Below, in pieces: positions 8,844 through 47,016 of a DNA stretch of 64,000 nucleotides. The DNA is from Chiloscyllium plagiosum (lineage: Eukaryota). The position numbers were made by a program, and so were the translations under genes. Below the pieces are notes generated by a model. The model searched no databases. It saw only the letters and a program-made list of their open reading frames with translations, and was not told where the DNA came from. The stretch is taken from positions 29,178,822 through 29,242,821 of the forward strand of contig NC_057719.1 of the NCBI RefSeq assembly GCF_004010195.1, written 5' to 3'. Positions within the stretch are counted from its first letter, which is position 1, and every line of letters begins with the position of its first letter.

Positions 8844-9152
8844 TATAGTGAAGTCAGCCAGTAGACCTCATAGAGTATGAGTTTCCTGATTGGGACTGTT
8901 AATCTGGTCCAATCAACGAGCCCTGGCTGACAGATATAAAGAGAAGTGTTGCGGTAGTATGGGGGTAAAATAAAAGATGAGCAAGAGTGTCAGAAGTTCT
9001 GGTCACTTTGACAAATAACAAAAAAAAAAGAAGTGTTAGATATTCTGACATCCAGAGCTGGCTCTGCGAGAGCTGGACCAGTGTCAAGGCCTTTCCACAT
9101 GTAAATAAAGGTGATTTGGTGATGGGATACCAGCCTCTGTGGAGTTATTTTA
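8844..9152 (+). mobile_element. Solo LTR of the Gypsy element at 33442-38998, with short insertions beside its TATA box
   Basis: Similar to the reverse complement of 38763-38998 and 33442-33557; CCAAT, gatataaa and aataaa motifs; ends ggagttatttta. Confidence 0.8.
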
Positions 9153-11144: not shown

Positions 11145-13466
11145 GAAACGTCTGGATAGCAAACCTACAGCTCAGCGAGCAAACCTACACCCTAAACCTC
11201 AACCTGAGCTACAAACCTTCACAAATCTTGCAAAAACCTATGGGCACAATACGCTACAACTTGCCTGAAGATGGGAAAGGAATGCCATCCGAGAGAGTTC
11301 CACCCGCGAACAACTGTACTTCCTGCATGAATGTTTAAGAAAACAGGTATGCCAAAATGTTTCCAATATAAGCCGCCGATAAAAACACCTCAAGCCAGAA
11401 ATTTAACAGAACAAAACGGCCGCAGAATGCTCCGAGAACTAATCAATGATGCCCACCACAGACTCTGAAAATACAACCGGGAAATTGCGCGGCAAAAACT
11501 GTTATTCAAACAGGCAACAAATCAAGAATGGACAGATGCGGTAGAACGAGCCATAAACACCAAACCACGACAAACACAGCTAAAGAAAAATCGGGACCTG
11601 AAGACAAAACTTGACAAACTCACTAACAAAAACAAAACAGATAACACAGGGGCATGGATAAAGAATTTATCAGACCGGACCCTATCAGACACAGAAAAAG
11701 CAGTACTAGTAAAAGGATTAAATTTCAATTACCAAGATGCTGACAAGAAGGATTTCCTAGCGGCATTAGAAACCACATTGAAGGACAACAATCTCACGGA
11801 AGAAACATAACAAACTATCAGACAGACAGTTGCACCTACTCTGAGCCAAAAGAGGGAAGGAAACAAACTGAACACATAAGAAATGAAAGTCCTAGAAAAT
11901 CTCAAAAAAGACAAAAACATCATTATATTACCTGCAGACAAAGGTCGGCTCACAGTCATCCTGAACAGAAGGGACTACATAGAGAAAGCCAATGCACTAC
12001 TCGCAGATACCAACACCTACCAAAAGGTGGCTCTAGACCCGACCCCACAACTAGGAAACAAAATTACATATCTCCTAAGAAAATTACACAATTCTGGAAA
12101 ATTAAACAAGACAGAATTCCAGAAAATGAAACCCGACGGGACCAACACCCCACGATTCTACGGACTACCAAAAATCCATAAACCAGAAGCCCCCCTCAGA
12201 CCTATAGTCTCACTACCCGGAACACCAACTTATAGACTGGCCAAAGAACTACATGCAAGACTGAAATACCTAGTAGAAGAGTCACAGCACTCCATCCACT
12301 CCACCCAAGAATTCCTAAAAATCATCAAAAACACCAAAGTTGAGGAAGACGAAGCAATGATCTCATTCGACGTAACAGCACTGTTCACCTGCATCAACAT
12401 CGACCGAGCAAAGGAAACACTCATCACACTTTTAGAAGAGACCATCACACACACACCAACTACCATCAATCACATTACCAATGAAAACATCATGAAGCTA
12501 GTGGACCTGTGCCTCACCACCCACTTCACTTTCAACAACATAGTCTACAAACAAACCAACGGCACACCCATGGGATCTCCGCTATCAGGATTCATAGCAG
12601 AAGCGGTAATGCGAAGACTAGAACAAACAGCCCTACCAATCATCAAACCAAAAATCTGAGTTCGCTACGCAGATGACACCTTTGTCATCACAAAACGAAA
12701 CAAGATAGAAGAGACATTTAACATCATCAACAACATCCTCACAGGCATAAAGTTCACCAAGGATGAAGAAACCAACAACAAACTTGCATTTCTGGATGCC
12801 ACAGTAGAAAGAAAGGACAAGGGAGAATTACAAACCTGCGTATACAGAAAACCGACAAACACTGACCAAATACTCAACTACACCAGCAACCATCCCAACA
12901 CACACAAACGAAGCTGTATCAGAACACTACTCCAACGAGCCACCCACACTGCAGCACAGACAAACTTTGAAAAACAGAGGAGAACCACCTATACGACGTA
13001 TTCAAGAAGAACGGATACTCAAAAAACACAGTCCACAGATTCCTCAAGAACAAACCACGACAAGCAGACCAAACACAGCCAGAAACTTTAACCACCTTAC
13101 CATACATCAAAGAAGTTTCAGAAATGACAGCCAGACTACTAAGACCCCTCAGAATCCTAGTAGCACACAAACCCACCAACACTCCCAAACAAAAACTAAC
13201 AAACTTAAAAGACTCAGTACAACCCATGGACATAACCAACGTCATCTACAAAATTCCATGCAAGGACTGCCACAAACACTATGTAGGACAAACAGGAAGA
13301 AAGTTAGCTACCAGGATACACGAACACAGCTAGCCACAAAAAGACACAACCCTCTCTCCCTCGTAGCCCTACACACGGATGAAAAAAACCACCATTCCGA
13401 CTGGGACAACATATCTATCCTGGGACAGGCTAAACAAAGACATGCCAGAGAATTCCTAGAGGCCTG
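11145..13466 (+). mobile_element. Penelope-like element (family 2), near-complete RT + GIY-YIG ORF with stops
   Basis: ILPADKG, PRFYGLPKIHK..PLRPIVS, SFDVTALFT, GTPMGSPLS, RYADD; VIYKIPCKDCHKHYVGQTGR (GIY-YIG); 5' TSD copy agtaacatataca at 11132-11144. Confidence 0.95.
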
Positions 13467-13959
13467 CTCATATATTAGCACTGAATATCAGGGTTAAATG
13501 GTAATATAGATGCAACATCAGTTATGCTGAGTCACCAAGCATGAGTGAGTTGCAACTGGCTATGGGTAAAGAATGAAATCCACTGTAGATCTCTGATGGG
13601 AAATTCCAATTTCTCCATTGTGTGTAAACCTGTTCATCTCTCTCAGAGAGACAGCATTCATTTTCCAATCAGGAAACATGCTACATCCCTTCAACCAAAT
13701 AACCAAGATGATGTCACCAGTGCCACGATGGTTCAGCCTGAAGTAGAACTTCAAGCTCCAAATTGCTCGAGGGAATTTTACAAAGCCATTTGAAATCTCC
13801 CCCATGAAATACAGCCACCTTCCATCAGCTATACTAAACAAGTAGCACTGCATAAGTACACAGGGTCAGGCAAAAACATCTGCAAATAAGCACAGGGAAA
13901 ACTATGAAAATGAATAGGTCAGTTTTATATTAATTATGGAAATTGTTGTATATGTTACT

Positions 13960-25192: not shown

Positions 25193-26504
25193 GGTAGGTA
25201 AAAACAATGACCGCAGATGCTGGAAACCAGAGTCTAGATTAGAGTGGTGCTGGAAAAGCACAGCAGTTCAGGCAGCATCCGAGGAGCAGTAAAATCGATG
25301 TTTCAGGCAAAAGCCCTTCATCAGGAATACAGGCAGAGAGCCTGAAGGGTGGAGAGATAGGTGAGGAGGGTGGGTGTGGGGAGAAAGTAGCATAGAGTAC
25401 AATAGGTGAGTGGGGGAGGGGATGAAGGTGATAGGTCGGGGGGAAGGGTGGAATGGATAGGTCCCCACGCACAACTTCCCACTACTGTCCTTGACTGGCC
25501 CTAATCTTATTCTAGTCATTTTTTTTATTCCTGACATACCTACGGAACGTTTTAGGGTTTTCCTTGATCTGACCTGCCAAAGACTTCTCTTGTCCCCTCC
25601 TCACTCTTCTTAGCTCTCTCTTAAGGTCTTTCTTGGTTAATTTGTAAGTTTCAAGTGCCCTAACTGAGTCTTCAGGTCTCATCTTTACATAAACTTCCTT
25701 CTTCCTCTTCATAAGAGATTCAACTTCATCAGTAAACCATGGCTCCCTTGTTTGACCACTTCTTCCTGTCTGACAGATACATACTCCAGGTGGTCACGGA
25801 GGGAACGGTCTTTGCGGAAGGCGGAGAGGGGTGGGGATGGAAATATATCCCTGGTGGTGGGGTCTGTTTGGAGGTGGCGGAAATGTCGGCGGATGATTTG
25901 GTTTATGCGAAGGTTGGTAGGGTGGAAGGTGTGCACCAGGGGCGTTCTGTCCTTGTTGCGGTTGGAGGGGTTGGGTCTGAGGGTGGAGGTGCGGGATGTG
26001 GACGAGATGCGTTGGAGGGCATCTTTGACCACGTGGGAAGGGAAATTGCGGTCTGTAAAGAAGGAGGCCATCTGGTGTGTTCTATGGTGGAACCGCTCCT
26101 CTTGGGAGCAGATACGGCGGAGGCGGAGGAATTGGGAATACGGGATGGCATTTTTGCAGGAGGTAGGGTGGGAAGAGGTGTAATCCAGGTAGCTGTGGGA
26201 GTCGGTGGGTTTGTAGAAGATGTCAGTGTCAAGTCGGTCGTCACTGATGGAGATGGAGAGGTCCAGGAAGGGGAGGTAGGTGTCAGAGATGGTCCAGGTA
26301 AATTTAAGGTCGGGGTAGAATGTGTTGGTGAAGTTGATGAATTGCTCAACCTCCTCGCGGGAGCACGAGGTGGCGCCAATGCAGTCATCAATGTAGCGGA
26401 GGAAGAGGTGGGGAGTGGTGCGGTGTAGTTACGGAAGATTGACTGTTCTACGTGGCCAACAAAGAGACAGGCATAGCTATGGCCCATACGGGTGTCCATG
26501 GCTA
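25193..26504 (-). mobile_element. Penelope family 1 (RT part + 3' end) with an internal CR1 fragment (about 25463-25786), 11-bp TSD
   Basis: MGHSYACLFVG, RYIDD-type motif, QTDPTTRDIFP; CR1 piece IKENPKTF.RYV; TSD tgataagatca at 25182-25192 and 26505-26515. Confidence 0.88.
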
Positions 26505-28304
26505 TGATAAGATCATAGTTGATCTGATTGAAGTCACTTTGGAGAGTGGAAGAAATGTTTGACCAAAGAAAAGTAACAAATACTGCAATTCAGCTATTTT
26601 CTTTTACTTGTAATGTTCTGCCTCCTTTCCTGTTTGTATCATCAGTCAATGGTCTCCACCTCTAGCCTGCTAAAATTTCTTCAGTACCTGGCTGTGTATG
26701 TTGACTTTGTTCTGAGGGTGCACTTGGAATTTATCCAGCAGCATTGCTTTATCTCTGGTCACTTGCACTAGGTCCATGTCAGGATAATCATCAGATGATT
26801 ATTCTGTAAGGTTCACTTCATTTGTAAGGTTGGAGCTTCTTATTTTTTTCAATGGGTCAAAGGCCTATTATTGGTGACAGTAGTTGATAACCTGCTTCTC
26901 ATTTTAGATGAAGCCATCGGGTGGATACTATTCCTCAAAGTGAGCTTGGAAGTGGAGGTTAGAGGATGCAGGTTATGGGCCTCACTTTCCACCCTCTGCC
27001 CCAATCAAGTCCAGAATGGGAAGGTGAATGCAAAGAGTTATAAATGGCCTTTCCATCCTGATGCCAATGTCTTAAGAAGCCAATTAATGCCTACTTAAAG
27101 GCCTCATCCAGCTGGTGCTGATAGTCAGGGGAATCACCATTCTGGAAATCTTGAAAAGCAAAATCTGGTCAAAATCTGCCTTAGCCTGCAAACAAATGAG
27201 TAGCCTCATCACTCCCTACCTGATTGAAGGACAGAACACTTGGGAGGAAGAAGGTGCACTTGAGAGCCACTGTTTATCCTTTTAATCTGACCTCCTTGTC
27301 CTTCCAATCAGTGGCTCCATCCTCATTACATGCATTCTGCCCTCACTCATCTGCAGCTTGGGTCCTTACTGATCTTGGTCCTCTGGTTGATGCAGTAGTC
27401 CTACCTCCAGAGGAGAAATGCTGGTCTCTCCTTGTTTGACAGCTTGAGGTTTCTGCCATCAAAGTCCTTGATCCAGGAAGATTCTGTCAGTGACCAATTT
27501 AGTGTCTGATTCGTCCAACAAATCAGTTGCCAATCTCAAAGAAGGCAATGCTGGCTTTTTGCAGCTCTAAAACAATGTTTGAGACACCTGTCATCTATAT
27601 TAAATTTCACACATTATTTTCCATTCCCCTCCAAACTCCATTTCCTTGCTACCAACTCTGTCCCTGTTCGTAGCATCTGTATGATAACTAAACCATCCAG
27701 TTCCCAATTTTGACATAATAATTAACCCCATAAGCTTCTGATCACAAATCGCCATTAATTTCTACTATCATAATATTACTTGACTTTGTTCACCTCAGCT
27801 CAGCTACTGTTGAATCCTCAGTTATGCCTTTGATACTTCTTGAGTTTACTATTCCACTTTACTCCTGACTGCTTTCCCACCTTGTAAACAATCCAAACCT
27901 CTACTCTCCACGTCCTTACTCAGTTACCACCCCTTAGTTGGTGTAGTACATTGGCTCCCAGCTAAACTGTTCTTCAACTTTCGAATTATTTATCTGTTTT
28001 CAATGGCCTTACCTTCTCTCTCTCTAATTTTCTGCAGGCTCAAAAAGTTTTAAAGTACATCCCTAACTTTCATTCTTGCATCTTTGATGGTTCTGCCTTC
28101 AGATGCTTAGCCCTACATTCTGAACTCCATCCCTAAACTGTTCACCTCTCTACCTTGCTTGCTTCCTTTAAGTTCCCCTTGAAACCCAGTCTACTGGACA
28201 AACTTCTTTTCATCAGCTGGCCAAATATCAGTCATATATCTCAGTATCTAACTTTGCTGTATAATCGTCCTGTGATGTGTTTCATTTCATAGAAGCACTA
28301 TGCT

Positions 28305-32750: not shown

Positions 32751-33441
32751 GGAAGTTCCTGTAGCCACATGGACTTGGTGCAGATGTGTTTGCCATGGAT
32801 TATGCCAGCATCCAGAAGTTCCCACATTCTGCATTTGCAGCACAGCATCTGCCCTGCCATCGTTAATGTGTTATTTAGTAAATGTTAATTAGTTTGTAAT
32901 TCATACAGCCTGTAACATCCAAATACATTTTAGCACTATCAGTAAACTTTACAATACTTACTAACTAATATAATACATTTACACTTATAGTTTGTAACAA
33001 ATCTAGAGAGTACTCTCTTCTTTTGTAGTATAAATTGCTCATTTTGTGATTCTGTCTTAATGAGTGTTGACAAACTTTGACAATATCTCAGTTTTCACCA
33101 GTCTTCACATTTTGTACTACCACGCAACATGCGATTGTTAAGCCCTGTTGAGTACTTACATACTGATATGGCCGAAGTAAGGAACAGCAAGAAAAACAAG
33201 TCATGGGTGGGAGGCTATAGGCTCCCAATTTTTTACATTTGTGAAAAATGGAAGCAAGTAAACTGATGAGCATAGTCTATGTTGGGCCGAAAACAAAATA
33301 CTTTTGCTTGCAAAAATTCAAAACAAAACATTCATATCCAATATGAATAAGTGATTAGTTAGCAATTGCTAAATAATCTTGATTATGTTAATAGCCACAT
33401 TGACAACCATTTTAAGATAATCAATCAATCAACTCCATAAC

Positions 33442-36400
33442 TGAAATAACTCCATAGAGGCCGGTATCCTGTCACCAGGTCACCCTTTATTTACAAGTGC
33501 GTAGTACTCGATACTGGTCCAGCTACCTCTGTCAACTCTCAGTCCAACAGAACCTTTCATACTTCTGTTTATTTTTAAAAAAATTTTTTCCTTTACCCTC
33601 ACACTTCCGCCTAACTGTGGTAGTGCTTATTTTTCCCCGGTACCCATGTTGTGTGTGTGCAGGTGTGAGACACAGTGAAAGACACAAGTTGCACAAATCT
33701 TTATTCAATTTCCACGACTAGGAAGAAAAGAAAACACCCAAGTGGCCAGTGACAAGCAGTGCCCTTCACATCAAAGGGCAATGCTATGTGATCAAACAGT
33801 GAAGGGGAGGGCAAGGATTAAATCAAAATAGAGTTGGAGGGGGAAATAATGCACTCCACTCCCTGCGGCACCCACCTCTCCCTGAACAGCTCAAGGGATT
33901 TGGTGGACATAGCGTGCTCCCTCGCCAGGGACACCCGGGCTCCAACATAACTGTGGAAGAGGGGAAGACAATCAGCCCGAACGACCCACTCCATGGCCCA
34001 CTGCCTTGACCTGTCTATGGCCAGTTTGGCCAGGCCCAGGAACAGACCCATGAGGAGGTCCTCAGACCTGCTCTCCCTGCTCCGTGCAGGGTGCCCGAAA
34101 TTCAGGAACGTGGGACTGAAGTGCAACCAAAACCAGAGAAGGAGATTTTTAAGAAAATCAAAAAGGGAGTGCAAATGCCCACATCCAATATATACATGGT
34201 CCATGGACTCCACAGCACCGCAGAACAAGCAGTAGGGCTGGGAGTCCATGAACCACCGCAATCTGCGGTTGCAGGGGACCGCTGTGTGCAGCACCCTCCA
34301 CCCCAGATCCCAAGAGGAGGGGCAGGACTCCCGCGTAGAAAGCCCTCCACTGGGGATCCCCATGACCTGGTGGCAAATGGGCATGCCAAGGCGTGTCCAG
34401 ATGGTGGGTGAGGGAGAAGAGGTGGACGGTGTACAGCAGCAGTCGATACAGGGCCCTCCTTTTTCCATCCTTAAAAGGGACAAAACTAAAATTCCGGATG
34501 CGGCTCAGGTTGTGGGGCACAGGTTCCCGCGGTAAGTACGGGACCTTGGGCCCAATGTGAAATTCTGTCCGGGCAGGGGTAAGCACGGACGAAATTCCAA
34601 CACACAACTGAGCATCCTTCAACTGGTGCACTACGTCGGGTCCAGGCACCGCCATTTTAAGGCGTCGAATGGCAGTGGTCACGTACCGGATGTCTACCGC
34701 TGCCCTGCTCATACTCCTGTTTTTTTTTAATGCCCACACTACTGCCTAATTGCAGTAGTGCTTATTTTTCCCCAGCACCCATGTGTGTGTGCAGGTGTGA
34801 GACACAGTGAAAGACACAAAGTGCACCAATCTTTATTCAATTTCCACCACCAGGAAGATAGGAAAACACCCGAGTGGCCAGTGACAAGCAGTTCCCTTCA
34901 CATTGAAGGGCAATGCTGTGTGATCAAAACAGTGAAGGGGAGGGTAGGGACTAAATCAAAATAGAGTTGGAGGGGGAAATAATGCACTCCACTCCCCGCG
35001 GCGCCCACCTCTCCCTGAACAACTCCAGGGTGTTGGTGGACACCGCGTGCTCCTTCTCCAAGGACACCCGGGCCCTAACGTAACCGCGGAAGAGGGGCAG
35101 GCAGTCGGCCCTAACGACCCCCTCCACGGCCAGCTGCCAGGACCTGTTGATGGCCAGTTTGGCCAGGCCCAGGAGCAGACCCACGAGGAGGTCTTCAGAC
35201 CTGCCCTCCCTCCTCCGTACCAGGCATACTCCTGTTTATTTTAAAAAAAATTTTTTTTGTAGCACCAGGCAGCACAGTCAGTCTCCTAAATTGAGAACAT
35301 CTCTGAATTTCCTGGTTATAATATTTTATTAAACAAATTACAAAACATTTTACAAAAAACAGTTAATATTTACAGCTGTATACAACAGCAATTTTACAAG
35401 GGAGAGGAGCAGCAAAGCTAGGCCCCAAACCCTACCATTCAACCTGTTTACAGGGAGATGAGGACAAACCTCAAATCCCATACTCCTAGTTTTTTTTTCC
35501 TGTTTATATTTTATTAAACAAATTACAAAAACAGTTTACAACAAACAGTTACATTTACAGCTGCATACAAGAGACAGCAATTTTACAACGGAGTGGAGCA
35601 GCAAAGCCAGTCCCCAAACCCTACCATTCAAACAGTTTACAGGGACATGAGGACAAACCTCAAATTCCATATTCTTGTTTTTTTTTTCTTTTTTCTTTTT
35701 TTTTAAAACACCTGAGTGGCCAGTGACAAACACTGCCCTTCACATCAAAGGGCAATGCTGTGTGTAGGTATAAGTTTTACTCTTTTTTTTTAGCACCCAT
35801 GGTGTGTGTGTATATGTGTGAGACACAGTGAAAGACACAAAGTGCACGAATCTTTATTCAATTTCCACCACCAGGAAGATAGGAAAACACCCGAGTGGCC
35901 AGTGACAAGCACTGCCCTTCACATCAAAGGGCAATGCAACCATACCCCTTTTTTTTTTCTTTTTTTTTCTTTTTTTTCTCTTTCTTTTTCTTTCCTTTCC
36001 CCACACTACCACCTAAGTGCGGTAGTGCTTATTTTTTCCCCAGCACCCATGGTGTGTGTGTATACGTGTGAGACACAGTGAAAGACACAAAGTGCACGAA
36101 TCTTTATTCAATTTCCACCACCAGGAAGATAGGAAAACACCCGAGTGGCCAGTGACAANNNNNNNNNNNNNNNNNNNNNNNNNNNNNNNNNNNNNNNNNN
36201 NNNNNNNNNNNNNNNNNNNNNNNNNNNNNNNNNNNNNNNNNNNNNNNNNNNNNNNNNNNNNNNNNNNNNNNNNNNNNNNNNNNNNNNNNNNNNNNNNNNN
36301 NNNNNNNNNNNNNNNNNNNNNNNNNNNNNNNNNNNNNNNNNNNNNNNNNNNNNNNNNNNNNNNNNNNNNNNNNNNNNNNNNNNNNNNNNNNNNNNNNNNN

Positions 36401-38998
36401 NNNNNNNNNNNNNNNNNNNNNNNNNNNNNNNNNNNNNNNNNNNNNNNNNNNNNNNNNNNNNNNNNNNNNNNNNNNNNNNNNNNNNNNNNNNNNNNNNNNN
36501 NNNNNNNNNNNNNNNNNNNNNNNNNNNNNNNNNNNNNNNNNNNNNNNNNNNNNNNNNNNNNNNNNNNNNNNNNNNNNNNNNNNNNNNNNNNNNNNNNNNN
36601 NNNNNNNNNNNNNNNNNNNNNNNNNNNNNNNNNNNNNNNNNNNNNNNNNNNNNNNNNNNNNNNNNNNNNNNNNNNNNNNNNNNNNNNNNNNNNNNNNNNN
36701 NNNNNNNNNNNNNNNNNNNNNNNNNNNNNNNNNNNNNNNNNNNNNNNNNNNNNNNNNNNNNNNNNNNNNNNNNNNNNNNNNNNNNNNNNTTTGGTTGCAC
36801 TTCAGTCCCACGCTCCTGATCTTCTGGCACCCGGTACGGAGGAGGGAGGGCAGGTCTGAAGACCTCCTCGTGGGACTGCTCCTGGGCCTGGCCAAACTGG
36901 CCATAAACAGGTCCAGGCAGCTGGCCATGGAGGGGGTCAATCACTACAACCCTCCTCCTCGAAGTCATGGCATATAGGCCTTTTGCTGTTCTTGTAACCT
37001 CTCCGGGGTGGTTTTCGCACCAGGTCCACCTCCTCTGACTCAACCTTGGATAGGGGTGGGGTGCACTGGACTGTAGCCTGCAGCTTTGCACCTGGAGCAT
37101 CAAAGAAATTCAACCTCTACTTCAGGTGATAAGGGTCTCGAGGCTGTGACATCTGCCATCCATCTCAGACTCCAAGGTTTCTTCAGTGCTCAGCAGAGGG
37201 GGAAGAACCCATGGGTTCGGGCAGTCTTTCTGTGTGTTCTGAGGGGCCGACTATTTTGCTCCTGTCCCATTTGTGAGCTTGCAGCTTTCACGTGGCCCAT
37301 GTGCTTGTTCAGGACCTCCATGCCTAGCTGAACATTGTACGTCACAGGACCTGACCTTGAGTCAACCTTGTCTGTTACCCATGCAGGGTCATTTTTGTTG
37401 TTTTGACACCAAAGTTCAACTCTTGCAGTAAACCATGTGTTTCCCTTAGAGGAGCCTTGTGCCCTGCATTGGCATTAGTGATGTTGTTTCACCCTGCAAC
37501 CACCACCACCACCGCGCCCCTCCCCCCCCACCCCAGCCACCTCCACCAGTTCCTGGAAGGTCAGATTTAATCTGATGTGGAGTCTTGTCACCATTAGCAA
37601 CTCTGTTGAAGCTATCTCTGTAGTAGTAGAAGGTGTGGTCTTATAACCAAATAGGAACTGAGATAGCTTGGTATTGAGTGGAGCTGTAGGCTTTCTTTCA
37701 GCCTGCCTTGAAAGTTTAATCCACTCAACCTTAAGGGTTGGGTTCCAGAATTTTGTTCTGTTATCACTCGGTGTCCATTTAACTTGACATTTATTCTGAT
37801 TGGTTCTGATTTGGATTTGCTCAGCAATTTAACTGTTCCAAGTCAGATGTAGGTGAGTTTTCCATGGTGTGCACTCTCTGGGATACCACCCTATGAGTTC
37901 TCCTACTCAAATCAGGCCTCGTGGATCTCCTCTTGTCTAGACTCTGCATCCCAGCAGCAACTACAATGGCTTGCTGGCCGAAACCCTGAAGAAAATGTTA
38001 ACCATTTAGCTGAGGCTTGGCTTTGCTTTGTGGTTTTGCCATGGGATGACTTAGAGGCCCTCTGTCAGGATATGTCCTGATTGAGGCTGTGCAATTGCCT
38101 CCACTCAAGTGATGTCCACCAAGCTCAGTTAGCCTGGCCATGGTGTGAACTTCCATCAGCATGCCCTGTAACTCATTTTCCTCTTGTCGCATTTCCTAAT
38201 GGGAAAGCCAGTTGTAGTGCCTATTTGAAGTCTGGTTGGGTTTCAGCTGGCAGGTGCTTTTGCATATTTACATCATTAATCCCATTTACCAGTCTCTCAG
38301 CATCTCATAAAGAATTAAGCCAAAGTCACATGCCTCTGCCAATGATCTTAATCTCCTCAAAAACCACAACATGGATTTCTCTCGTTCTCGAATTGCCAAG
38401 TAAAACCAATTGTGTCTCAGAATTAGAGGAGGCTTGGGGTTGTAATATTCCTTAACTAAATTCATCAACTCTTGAAAGGTTTTATTACCTGGTTCCTCAG
38501 AAAACGTTAGATTCCTAATAACTGAAAAAGCTACAGGTCCACAAGCTGTTAGGAGAATAACTGTTTGCTTTTAATCTGCTCACTGTCATTTGCCTGGAAA
38601 ATAATAACATTTTTTCCATATACCATGGACCCAGTCTTCACGTGCAGGATTGATTGAGTCACACTACCCAAATAAAGGCAGGATGCCAGAAATGCTCACC
38701 CCAACTCAAAAAATACTGTTACAAGCAAATTTCTTCCGGAATTTTCTTTTCTTTCATTGCCAATAAATAACTCCACAAAGGCCAGTATTCTGTCACCAAA
38801 GCACCTTTTATTTACAAGTGCATTGTTCTCAATACTGGTCCGGCTTCCTCAGAGCCAACTCTCAGAATCAACAGGACTTCGGACACTCCTAATTATATCT
38901 GTCAGCCAGGGCTCCCTGATTGGGGCTGTTAACCAGGTCCAATCAGGGAACTCATATTCTATGAGGTCCACCTGGCTGACCTCGTTACATTCACTATA
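33442..38998 (-). mobile_element. Gypsy LTR retrotransposon, internally deleted; 3' LTR disrupted by Tx1 array; 5-bp TSD
   Basis: 5' LTR 38763-38998; gag YYNPKPPLIL..F..R..S..FLRRLRSLAEACDFG..EMLRD; protease PIRINVKLNG; integrase C-term GPVTYNV; polypurine tract 36950-36961; TSD ataac at 33437-33441 and 38999-39003. Confidence 0.88.
33569..36938 (-). mobile_element. Tandem array of 5'-truncated Tx1/L1-type LINE copies (plus a second poly(A) family); last piece 36790-36938 is on + strand; spans a gap
   Basis: DLGWRVLH.AVPCNR..CLFCG..ESMDH..GC (C-terminal CCHC), LAKLAI..SR; repeated 3' UTR with aataaa and poly(A). Confidence 0.88.
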
Positions 38999-39442
38999 AT
39001 AACATGGGTCAGTTATCTTTACCAGAACTGAAATAAATCCTTTATTGCAATCAAAGTTGACTGGTCAACCAATCAGCACCCTTTTTTCCTGTAGTAGAAT
39101 TTATTACGATTCTTTAAAACTTGTATCAGTATTTATAAAAAGGTCAGCTACTTTGAGGAAACAAGTCAGAAGTGAGAGCATTGCACATTAAATTTGGCAG
39201 AGTGGAGATGTTGAAAAAAACCTGGGATTCTTTTGAAAGATAATTCTGGTGCAGCTTTAGTCTAGTTTTTTAAAGGTAGTATGACTGCATCATGTCTACG
39301 ACATGTACTATTTCCAAACTACCAGAAAATGGGTGGTAATTCGAATGGAAATTCCAATGAATTACATTTTAATCTTGTGCAGTATATAATTTTACATAGC
39401 AAAACATTCATATACATTTTTTATGTTTATTAAATATTACAG

Positions 39443-44852: not shown

Positions 44853-47016
44853 TCAAAAAGTGTGATGCTGGAAAAGCAGAGCCATCCGAGGAGCAGGGGA
44901 GTTAACATTTTGAACATAAGCTCATCATCAGAGATGGGGTGGGTGGGGGATGGGACTGAGGGAAGGTAGCTAGGAATGTGAAAGGTAGATGAAGGTGGGG
45001 TGATGGTGATAGGTCAGAGGTCCATCCAACCGAAACAAGGATAGAACCTTCCTGGTTCTCACCTTCCACTCCACCAATCTCTGGATACAACACATCATCC
45101 TCTGCCATTTCTGCCACCTACAGTCATACCCCAACACCAGAGATATATTTCCCTCCCCAGCCCTTTCAGTACCCTCCAACTGCAACAAGGATAGAACCCC
45201 CATGGTCCTCACCTTCCAGCCCACCGATATCTAGATACAACGCATTATCCTCTGCCATTTCTGTCACCCACAGTCAGACCCTACCACCAGAGAAATATGC
45301 ATCTGGAGAATTCCCCTATGCTCTAAAGAATAAAAGGCCCTAACTTGTCCAATATCTCCTTATAACTTAGACCATTGAGTCCAGGCAACATCCTTGTAAA
45401 TTTCTTCTGCACTGGATGTAAGTTTGCTCGCTGAGTTGCAAGGTTCATTTTCACATGTTTCATCACCATACTAGGTAACATCAGTGAGCCCCACTGAAGC
45501 ACAGGTGTTATGACCTACTTTCTGTTGATGTGTTTAGGTTTCATTGGGCTGATAATGTCATTTTCGGCAGTGAAGTCATTTCCTGTACTTTTCCTCAAAG
45601 GGTGGTAAATTGGGTCCAAGTCGACATGTTTGTTGATAGAGTTCCAGTTGGAATGCCATGCTTCTAGGAATTCTCATGCATGTCTCTGTTTGGCTTGTCT
45701 AGGATACCCTCAACAACTTCTCTTTCTCTTTCGAATCCTCCCACTTTCTCCAGATGAAAGGGGTAGCCATGGGCACCTGCATGGGCCCCAGCTATGCCTG
45801 TCTCTTTGTTGGCTACGTAGAACAGTCCATCTTCTGTAGTTACACCGGTACCACTCTCCATCTTTTCCTCCACTACATTGATGACTGCATCGGCGCCACA
45901 TCGTGCTCCCACGAGGAGGTAGATCAGTTCTTCAATTTCACCAACACATTCCACCCCGACCTTAAATTCACATGGACCATCTCTGACACCTCCCTCCCCT
46001 TCCTGGACCTCTCCATTTCCATCAATGACAACTGACTCAACGCCAACATTTTCTACAAACCCACTGACTCCATAGCTACCTGGATTACACCTCATCCCAC
46101 CCTACCTCCTGCAAAAATGCTATCCCGTATTCCCAATTCCTCCGCTTCTACCGTATCTGCTCCCAGGAGGACCAGTTCCACCACAGAATACACCAGATGG
46201 CCTCCTTCTTTAAAGACTGTAATTTCCCCTCCCACGTGGTTGAAGATGCCTTCCAATGCATCTCATCCATGTCCCGCACCTCCGCCTCAAACTCCACCCC
46301 TCCAACCGCAACAAGGACAGAAGCCCCTGGTCCTCACCTTCCACCCCACCAACCTCCGTATAAACCGTATCATCTGCCAACATTTCTGCCACCTACAAAC
46401 GGACCCCATCACCAGGGATATTTTTCCCTCCCCACGCCTTCCGCGAAGACCATTCCCTCCTGACTACCTGCACAGGTTTCCCCCGCCCCACAACAACCTA
46501 CCCTTGCCTCCTGGCACCTTCCCCTGCCACCGCAGGAATTGCAAAGCCTGCACCCACACCTCTCCCCTCACTTCCATCCAAGGCCCCAAAGGAGCCTTCC
46601 ATAACCATCAAAGTTTCAGCTGCACTTCCGCAAATGTCATTTATTGCATCCATTGCTCCTGGATGCCTCCTCGCTGAGCGCTTCAGGAATGTTTCTGGGC
46701 CACCCGCACAATCAACCCCACTGCCCCGTGGCCGAACATTTCAACTCCCCCTCCGACTGTGCAGAGGACATGCAGGTCCTGTGCCTCTTCCACCGCCACT
46801 CCCTCACCACCTGACGCCTGGAGGAAGAATGTCTCATCATCAAGTCGGAACTGTTCAATCCTAGGGCATCAATGTGGACTTCACCAGTTTCCTCATTTCC
46901 CCTCCCCCCTCCTTGCCCCAGTTCCAAACTTCCAGCTCAGCACCATTCTCATGACGTGTCCCACCTGTCAATCTTCCTTCCCACTTACCTGCTCCACCCT
47001 CCTCTCTGACCTATCA
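44853..47016. mobile_element. Cluster of Penelope fragments; family 1 RT-GIY on + strand 45705-47016, family 2 3' end on - strand 45415-45705
   Basis: KGVAMGTCMGPSYACLFVG..HYIDD..LPFLD; about 150-bp tandem duplication at 45025-45298. Confidence 0.85.

Follow-up and report, generated by a model that had tools for sequence, protein, structure and literature searches.

One LTR of a retrotransposon in Chiloscyllium plagiosum is split by a head-to-tail stack of poly(A)-tailed fragments, and the question raised by this locus is what brought one insertion after another to the same place. The stack lies in the window analysed here, a stretch of 64,000 nucleotides, and a preliminary description had proposed a Tx1 retrotransposon that inserts repeatedly beside the TATA box of a Gypsy LTR. 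In our analysis, the best explanation is that two families, a Tx1 LINE (family A) and a non-coding element (family C), favour sense insertion behind the TATA-like box of a Gypsy-type LTR, likely relying on the LTR promoter, a reading that the sequence comparisons below make reasonably probable.

As Table 1 shows, the stack in the 3' LTR consists of seven tailed pieces, five from family A (units 1, 2, 5, 6 and 7) and two from family C (units 3 and 4). Six junctions (33558, 34710, 35225, 35479, 35668 and 35941) carry the LTR's private variant of the target word, each followed by a T-rich tail as had been described; four belong to A and two to C. The assignment of all six copies to one Tx1 family is therefore retained for the four A units, while the units at 35225 and 35479 are C, and the count of "at least six" copies holds for those with the motif, to which unit 6 adds a seventh tailed piece that is without it. 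Unit 1 is the most diverged A copy in the stack (median 87% to other copies); its ORF2 end is 41% identical to Xenopus TX1 over 158 aa, with zf-RVT below the curated cut-off. The youngest is unit 4 (median 97.5% to other copies), which occupies a mid-stack position. The A units of the window are mutually 88–96% alike except for units 6 and 7, which are 99% identical over 117 nt, and the tail of unit 5 is joined ~135 nt inside the 3' UTR. The junction of the LTR with unit 1 is bridged by a contig of DNA run X6 (33466-33630; 2 differences, 1 gap). On the far side of the assembly gap, an inverted A piece adjoins a 9-nt remnant of the start of the 3' LTR, with ~90 nt of U3 lost; read across the gap, it is likely a 5' inversion of unit 7 with a target deletion.

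Table 1. The host LTR element, the units stacked in its 3' LTR, and a related solo LTR (positions within the window)
Feature	Position	Strand	Remarks
Solo LTR, same family	8844..9152	+	two short tailed stubs at the TATA site
Host LTR element	33442-38998	-	flanked by ATAAC duplication, partner copies at 33437-33441 and 38999-39003
3' LTR, R/U5 side	33442..33570	-	ends in locally mutated target word
Unit 1	33558..34709	-	family A (Tx1) 3' fragment, ~1.1 kb, poly(A)
Unit 2	34710..35224	-	496-nt family A fragment with poly(A) and duplicated target
Unit 3	35225..35478	-	duplicated target, poly(A), ~60 nt of foreign TATA and C head (35260-35320), family C 3' end (35321-35478)
Unit 4	35479..35667	-	family C 3' end, separated from its poly(A) by 10 nt of target; duplicated target
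Unit 5	35668..35764	-	duplicated target, poly(A), 60-nt A stub
Unit 6	35782..35937	-	tailed A stub, no clear target word
Unit 7, forward part	35941..36158	-	family A 3' end with poly(A) and target word; continues into the gap
Assembly gap	36159..36789	.	631 N in the sequence
Inverted family A piece	36790..36938	+	matches unit 1 at 33983-34131
First 9 nt of 3' LTR and polypurine tract	36940..36959	-	~90 nt of U3 gone
Host internal region	36960..38762	-	degenerate pieces resembling gag, protease and the integrase end; RT region lost
PBS-like TGG start	38762	-	behind the 5' LTR
5' LTR, uninterrupted	38763..38998	-	TATA-like box 38892-38897, degenerate target word

The host element is old, since its 3' and 5' LTRs are only 84% alike over 109 nt. 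The features of a Gypsy-type element are present (LTRs, primer-binding site, polypurine tract and 5-nt duplication), and the ATAAC duplication noted earlier was found on both sides. The gag of a host relative matches Retrotrans_gag-like protein-atlas clusters at 0.97, a family label carried by 23% of their members; RVT_1 directly follows a protease-like stretch in one relative (L246; L numbers refer to loci), and Integrase_H2C2 is found in another (L245). The window's own host pieces gave no Pfam match, the gag pieces of relatives gave nothing meaningful in Pfam, and homologue searches with the host gag returned no match. A Gypsy-type host, as originally described, is supported by these features, with the gag/protease/RT/integrase order taken from the relatives and BEL/Pao formally also possible. 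Among 11 gag-bearing relatives (L238-L248), the adjacent 5' LTR is interrupted at or beside the site in about four and intact in about four.

The identity of family A follows from longer copies elsewhere, which hold a frame at the ORF1 position, an endonuclease, an RT and a zinc knuckle; the ORF1-position frame is seen in L141 and L209, where its protein-atlas matches are unnamed or RRM-like. The domain pieces compared were drawn from different natural copies, all of them broken. Over 200 aa, the RT piece shares 67% identity with the Xenopus TX1 149 kDa protein (E 6e-80), as compared with E 1e-11 for human L1 ORF2p in a database of different size, and the endonuclease piece is 36% identical to TX1 (E 6e-17). 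RVT_1 is recognized at E 7e-23 and zf-RVT below its cut-off. The copies have poly(A) tails, 5' truncations and target-site duplications. Membership in the Tx1 clade, which had been proposed from the window, is supported by these data.

Family C is non-coding, with an A-rich end, a target-site duplication and GC-rich internal repeats, and reaches ~1.7–1.9 kb at full length where this is cleanly measurable. It contains no LINE-type ORF, and two loci (L220, L228) gave no Rfam match; a classical SINE head (tRNA, 7SL, 5S, snRNA) is lacking by this measure, and the head matches LTR R instead. The top copies are 96–98% identical to unit 4. No similarity was found between the 3' ends of C and A. Because C has no 3' tail in common with A, the assignment of the two as partners rests only on the shared target and the shared stacks; we consider that C is probably mobilised by A or a close relative. 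Ten nucleotides of target lie between C and the poly(A) in unit 4 and also in L063, L086 and L220, which would fit either read-through or a stub of pure poly(A) flanked by a short duplication.

The junction words reveal how the stack was built. The CATA variant of the window's LTR occurs at six junctions there and, among the matches listed, at 0 of 174 junctions elsewhere, which identifies the motif as a target-site duplication. Junction words are also more similar within loci than between them (0.50 vs 0.41, with 0 of 1000 permutations reaching this), a comparison made over 179 junctions at 70 loci by automatic and noisy parsing. The possibility that the motif is the element's own sequence is ruled out by these locus-specific words. 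With one mismatch allowed between its two copies, the duplication is 12–23 nt long, mostly 14–17, in 31 of 39 C copies among the best 40 listed, and includes the TATA-like word. Since a duplication of ~14–17 nt includes this word, each insertion rebuilds the target and stacks can grow. Copies of different age and different family share one stack, and the youngest unit, a C copy, lies in the middle of it, so inner duplications have been reused. The serial re-insertion into a regenerated duplication that had been suggested for this locus is thereby borne out.

The spacers of the stacks at L028, L030 and L020 are far from the common target word and have still been reused, which suggests that, once a stack exists, a tail plus a few bases may be enough. 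At L040, L049, L056, L059 and L043, the same LTR site holds older A-like and older C-like copies and at least two further tailed families; the LTR site is thus used by several lineages. Separately, in 73 of 196 tailed A pieces (L002-L310), the tail is joined 10–210 nt inside the 3' UTR rather than at its usual end.

The preference for this site extends through the genome. Each search sample comprises the best 40 of 389–1834 candidates and is no census; the queries were without flank sequence, and L083 and L121 overlap at one place. For A, 29 of the 39 other copies among the best 40 listed have an LTR half in matching orientation beside them, and for C, counted likewise, 23 of 39; the figure for background pieces of the window is 3 of 74. 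Kojima (2015, PMC4494074) describes a Tx1 family as target-specific when one sequence type occurs in >20% of its flanks, and both of these shares, within the same samples, are above that value. At the 3' flank, a target score of ≥6 directly behind the tail was obtained for 18 of 39 A and 10 of 39 C copies among the best 40 listed and for 0 of 56 background T-runs, with a score that is strict and built on one LTR subtype. Of 78 loci examined, 46 have an LTR match, with the insertion in the same orientation as the LTR in 44 and opposite in 2; this follows from priming and is not independent evidence. The genome-wide preference for the TATA-box site, anticipated in the preliminary description, is therefore found, as a preference and not as a strict specificity: among the best 40 listed, no LTR is nearby for 10 of 39 copies of A and 16 of 39 of C, and about one-third of the C copies sit at unrelated T-rich sites with clean duplications. 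In contigs of two other organisms (X9, X17), a target word of this kind likewise connects A pieces, a hint that relatives may share the system.

Viewed from the LTR, the site is frequently occupied. With LTR copies collected by their R/U5 half, so that the site was absent from the query, 14 of the 39 copies among the best 40 listed are interrupted at the site and 22 are intact; the script had classed 21 as intact, 13 as carrying a tailed insert and 5 as other, and reading moved L040 to the inserts and L138 to the intact copies. Many intact LTRs keep a perfect target. Escape by target decay was considered for the window's 5' LTR with its degenerate word and was set aside in view of these intact LTRs with a perfect word.

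The 5' ends of the longer copies bear on how the elements are transcribed, as in both families the full-length copies open with the stretch of LTR that immediately follows the TATA. Of 32 A loci found with an endonuclease query, 19 reach the 5' end. In three of these, the TATA is followed by ~60 nt of LTR R and then by the 5' UTR; in the other 16, four of them counted by reading, the ORF2 end and the first ~100 nt of the 3' UTR of the element itself are present as a second copy. This 5' repeat is joined to the R-like stretch with neither tail nor duplication. It is present at 30 of 30 loci found with a 5' UTR query, a query taken from a repeat-bearing copy and biased accordingly; four of these loci also belong to the endonuclease set. 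The repeat starts anywhere from ~160 to ~890 nt from the 3' end, with no common start, and always stops ~135–150 nt short of that end, before AATAAA. The R-like stretch scores 34–40 against subtype-1 LTR R, with shuffles at ≤26, and near-full-length A lies directly behind U3 and TATA in L209, L212, L254, L260, L261, L266 and L141. The repeat has its own variants at three columns, partly confounded by subfamily, and is clearly closest to its own 3' end in two of five testable copies (the own end ranks first in L195 and L203, high in L188 and midway in L210 and L213). Regeneration of the repeat from the element's own 3' end, as in TART, is not supported, as the own end is not consistently the closest and the repeat has variants of its own.

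In family C, a head starting at the TATA word is kept in 25 of 36 long copies, and 9 copies lie directly behind U3. This head matches subtype-2 LTR R over 41/50 to 52/63 nt (score 59–71, shuffles ≤29); as the motif used to collect subtype-2 LTRs overlaps the C head, LTR identity was defined by the downstream part. The remainder of the LTR is subtype 1 at seven loci, yet all seven have a subtype-2 head, which must therefore travel on the RNA from ~10 nt behind the TATA start. Where C copies lie in tandem, the head frequently shares variants private to the locus, a pattern suggestive of joining by homology. The C-to-C junction within unit 3 is of the type seen in L221 and L225, and its foreign TATA and head are likely a 3' transduction from a tandem C-C source. 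Read-through occurred at least once, in unit 3.

Intact LTRs contain, 29 nt behind the TATA, a word that we take to match the initiator consensus, and insertion falls between TATA and initiator as a result. As the element itself brings the C head from about TATA+10 onward, at least some C RNAs must start upstream of the local initiator, and simple initiation at the adjacent TATA is consequently not the whole story; such an upstream start may sometimes reflect read-through from an outer TATA, or an internal promoter. In a poly(A)-primed single-cell RNA run, about 2% of which was read with 2098 reads placed, depth over the A 3' end peaks at 777 vs 15 by mate direction, which fits sense RNA; run X22 contributed 0 reads. 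A tails are found in the RNA at 919 and 969-975 of L220, and depth on C reaches 37. Internal RNA tails at two places may account for some of the internally joined A tails. The same RNA picture could come from priming on genomic tails inside introns, and no transcription start clusters were listed for this poly(A)-primed library.

Several other accounts of the locus have to be weighed against these data. It is very improbable that the stack arose by tandem duplication after insertion or by mis-assembly: a gap does lie within it, units 6 and 7 are nearly identical, and among the contigs listed bridging is seen for the first junction only, but the stack contains two families with different truncation points, the other A units differ in sequence to the extent given above, the spacer is private to the locus, and the same architecture recurs at dozens of loci. 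Tandem duplication of the whole stack is ruled out by the differing families and truncations, with units 6 and 7 as a possible exception. Alternatively, the insertion machinery might be tethered to factors that occupy the promoter (TBP, the pre-initiation complex) or to the open chromatin of active LTR promoters, the cut at the TATA being made by an L1-like endonuclease of relaxed specificity. The exact coincidence of the site with the TATA-like box would fit such tethering, as would the repeated hits in the degenerate target variants of L028, L030 and L020 and the off-target C copies, which need only a T-rich end. We nevertheless regard it as improbable, as the youngest unit of the stack sits at an inner duplication, far from the U3 that the 3' LTR has lost, the off-target copies are not at recognisable TATA promoters, and target choice in non-LTR elements is described as set mainly by the endonuclease (Kojima 2015, PMC4494074). 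Recognition of the target word by the endonuclease is, in our judgement, highly probable.

The same sequence-directed targeting would also be compatible with internal promoters in A and C, the main rival to a use of the LTR promoter; the LTR-like heads would then be relics of one old capture that aid 5' joining only, and the net effect would be LTR disruption, a view near that of the preliminary description. The element-borne C head upstream of the local initiator fits this equally well, many full-length copies lie deep in stacks and far from a U3, the A 5' repeat has its three variant columns as a fixed master structure would, and the window's 3' LTR is without its U3. We consider internal promoters unlikely given that two unrelated elements took their heads from the same position of two LTR subtypes, that unit 3 reads through across a TATA junction, and that the A repeat ends before the poly(A) signal. 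The earlier suggestion that insertion disables the host LTR is retained as a plausible side effect, in line with the lost U3 of the 3' LTR; however, the host itself already lacks its RT region, and the heads point more to promoter use. Dependence of A and C on the LTR promoter has, as we see it, somewhat better than an even chance.

Under our favoured explanation, sense insertion behind the TATA-like box with use of the LTR promoter, the LINE endonuclease would nick the T-rich strand of the LTR word, and the nicked T-rich end would prime reverse transcription on the A-rich tail of the RNA (target-primed reverse transcription), with family C borrowing the proteins of A. RNAs would begin at an upstream LTR promoter and then run through stubs and tandem copies, and their target-like 5' ends would pair with the target, rebuilding TATA and head ahead of the new copy. 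The 5' repeat of A, minus the last ~135 nt with AATAAA, would let transcription continue into the ORFs and would itself be an expendable leader. A bolder version, which we offer tentatively and would not yet call probable, is that a promoter-less Tx1 LINE and its 1.8-kb non-coding passenger, by cutting between TATA and initiator and carrying LTR-derived heads, rebuild a working polymerase II promoter with each full-length insertion; C would then represent a kind of LTR-headed non-autonomous retroposon, and the stacks would be HeT-A-like arrays inside LTRs.

Known elements provide parallels for this system. Tx1L of Xenopus laevis (TX1 149 kDa protein, P0029) resembles A in its domain order of endonuclease, RT and zf-RVT and in having a transposon as target, which is the piggyBac-type DNA transposon Tx1D as opposed to an LTR promoter. 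The crocodilian Tx1 families Tx1-8_Crp and Tx1-4_AMi prefer LTR retrotransposons (Kojima 2015, PMC4494074) and are like A in this respect as compared by description, the position within the LTR element aside; the head of Tx1-4_AMi is described there as U1-derived, whereas that of A is LTR-derived. A target-choosing Tx1 family in LTR elements is therefore a kind already known, contrary to the earlier impression that such a target was undescribed. The literature searched, with Repbase, subscription papers and the supplements of Kojima 2015 outside its scope, contained no report of a Tx1 family that inserts at the TATA box of an LTR. The box is a new target here for a site-choosing LINE of a kind already known, whose non-coding partner has an LTR-derived head. 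For that partner, the nearest parallel is SINEU-3, a non-coding passenger on the target of a Tx1 family, Tx1-Mar in Mariner-N4_AMi, and for SINEU and Tx1-Mar transcription from the flanking target has been proposed (Kojima 2015, PMC4494074). The SINEU heads described there derive from U1/U2 snRNA, in contrast to C, which is ~1.8 kb long, has no Rfam match and takes its head from the target LTR's own downstream sequence.

Two further comparisons concern transcription and arrays. The endonuclease of R2 is restriction-like. In 28S rDNA, R2 is co-transcribed with its target, and target sequence on the RNA aids integration (as cited in PMC4494074); the R2 target is rRNA with co-transcription, which for A and C we only infer. 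Drosophila HeT-A and TART form one-direction head-to-tail stacks in which the upstream neighbour can supply a promoter, and TART has non-terminal repeats (PMC5537684). This is an analogy only: those arrays are telomeric, unlike the A/C stacks, and the A 5' repeat, as noted, is not consistently nearest its own 3' end and has its own variants.

For an APE endonuclease from a vertebrate that is close to that of Xenopus Tx1, the system defines a target word of ~15 nt and provides many natural insertions for mapping the nick site; it could be used to study how L1-type endonucleases become site-choosing. With about one-third of the sampled LTR copies split at the core promoter, insertion would shape the expression of the LTR family. 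If the promoter borrowing is true, the transcription of promoter-less target-specific elements, a question open for SINEU and Tx1-Mar, becomes testable on young, 98%-identical copies.

Finally, other parts of the window contain related or neighbouring elements. The solo LTR listed in Table 1 has no clean flanking duplication, and of its two stubs one is a 26-nt A 3' end and the other, terminated by poly(A), comes from the downstream sequence of the LTR itself. Degenerate, putatively Penelope-like elements whose frames resemble RT and GIY-YIG are found at 1298-2433, 11744-13497, 25668-26589 and 45664-46864, and the stretch 1342-2389 comprises two near-identical copies in opposite orientation.
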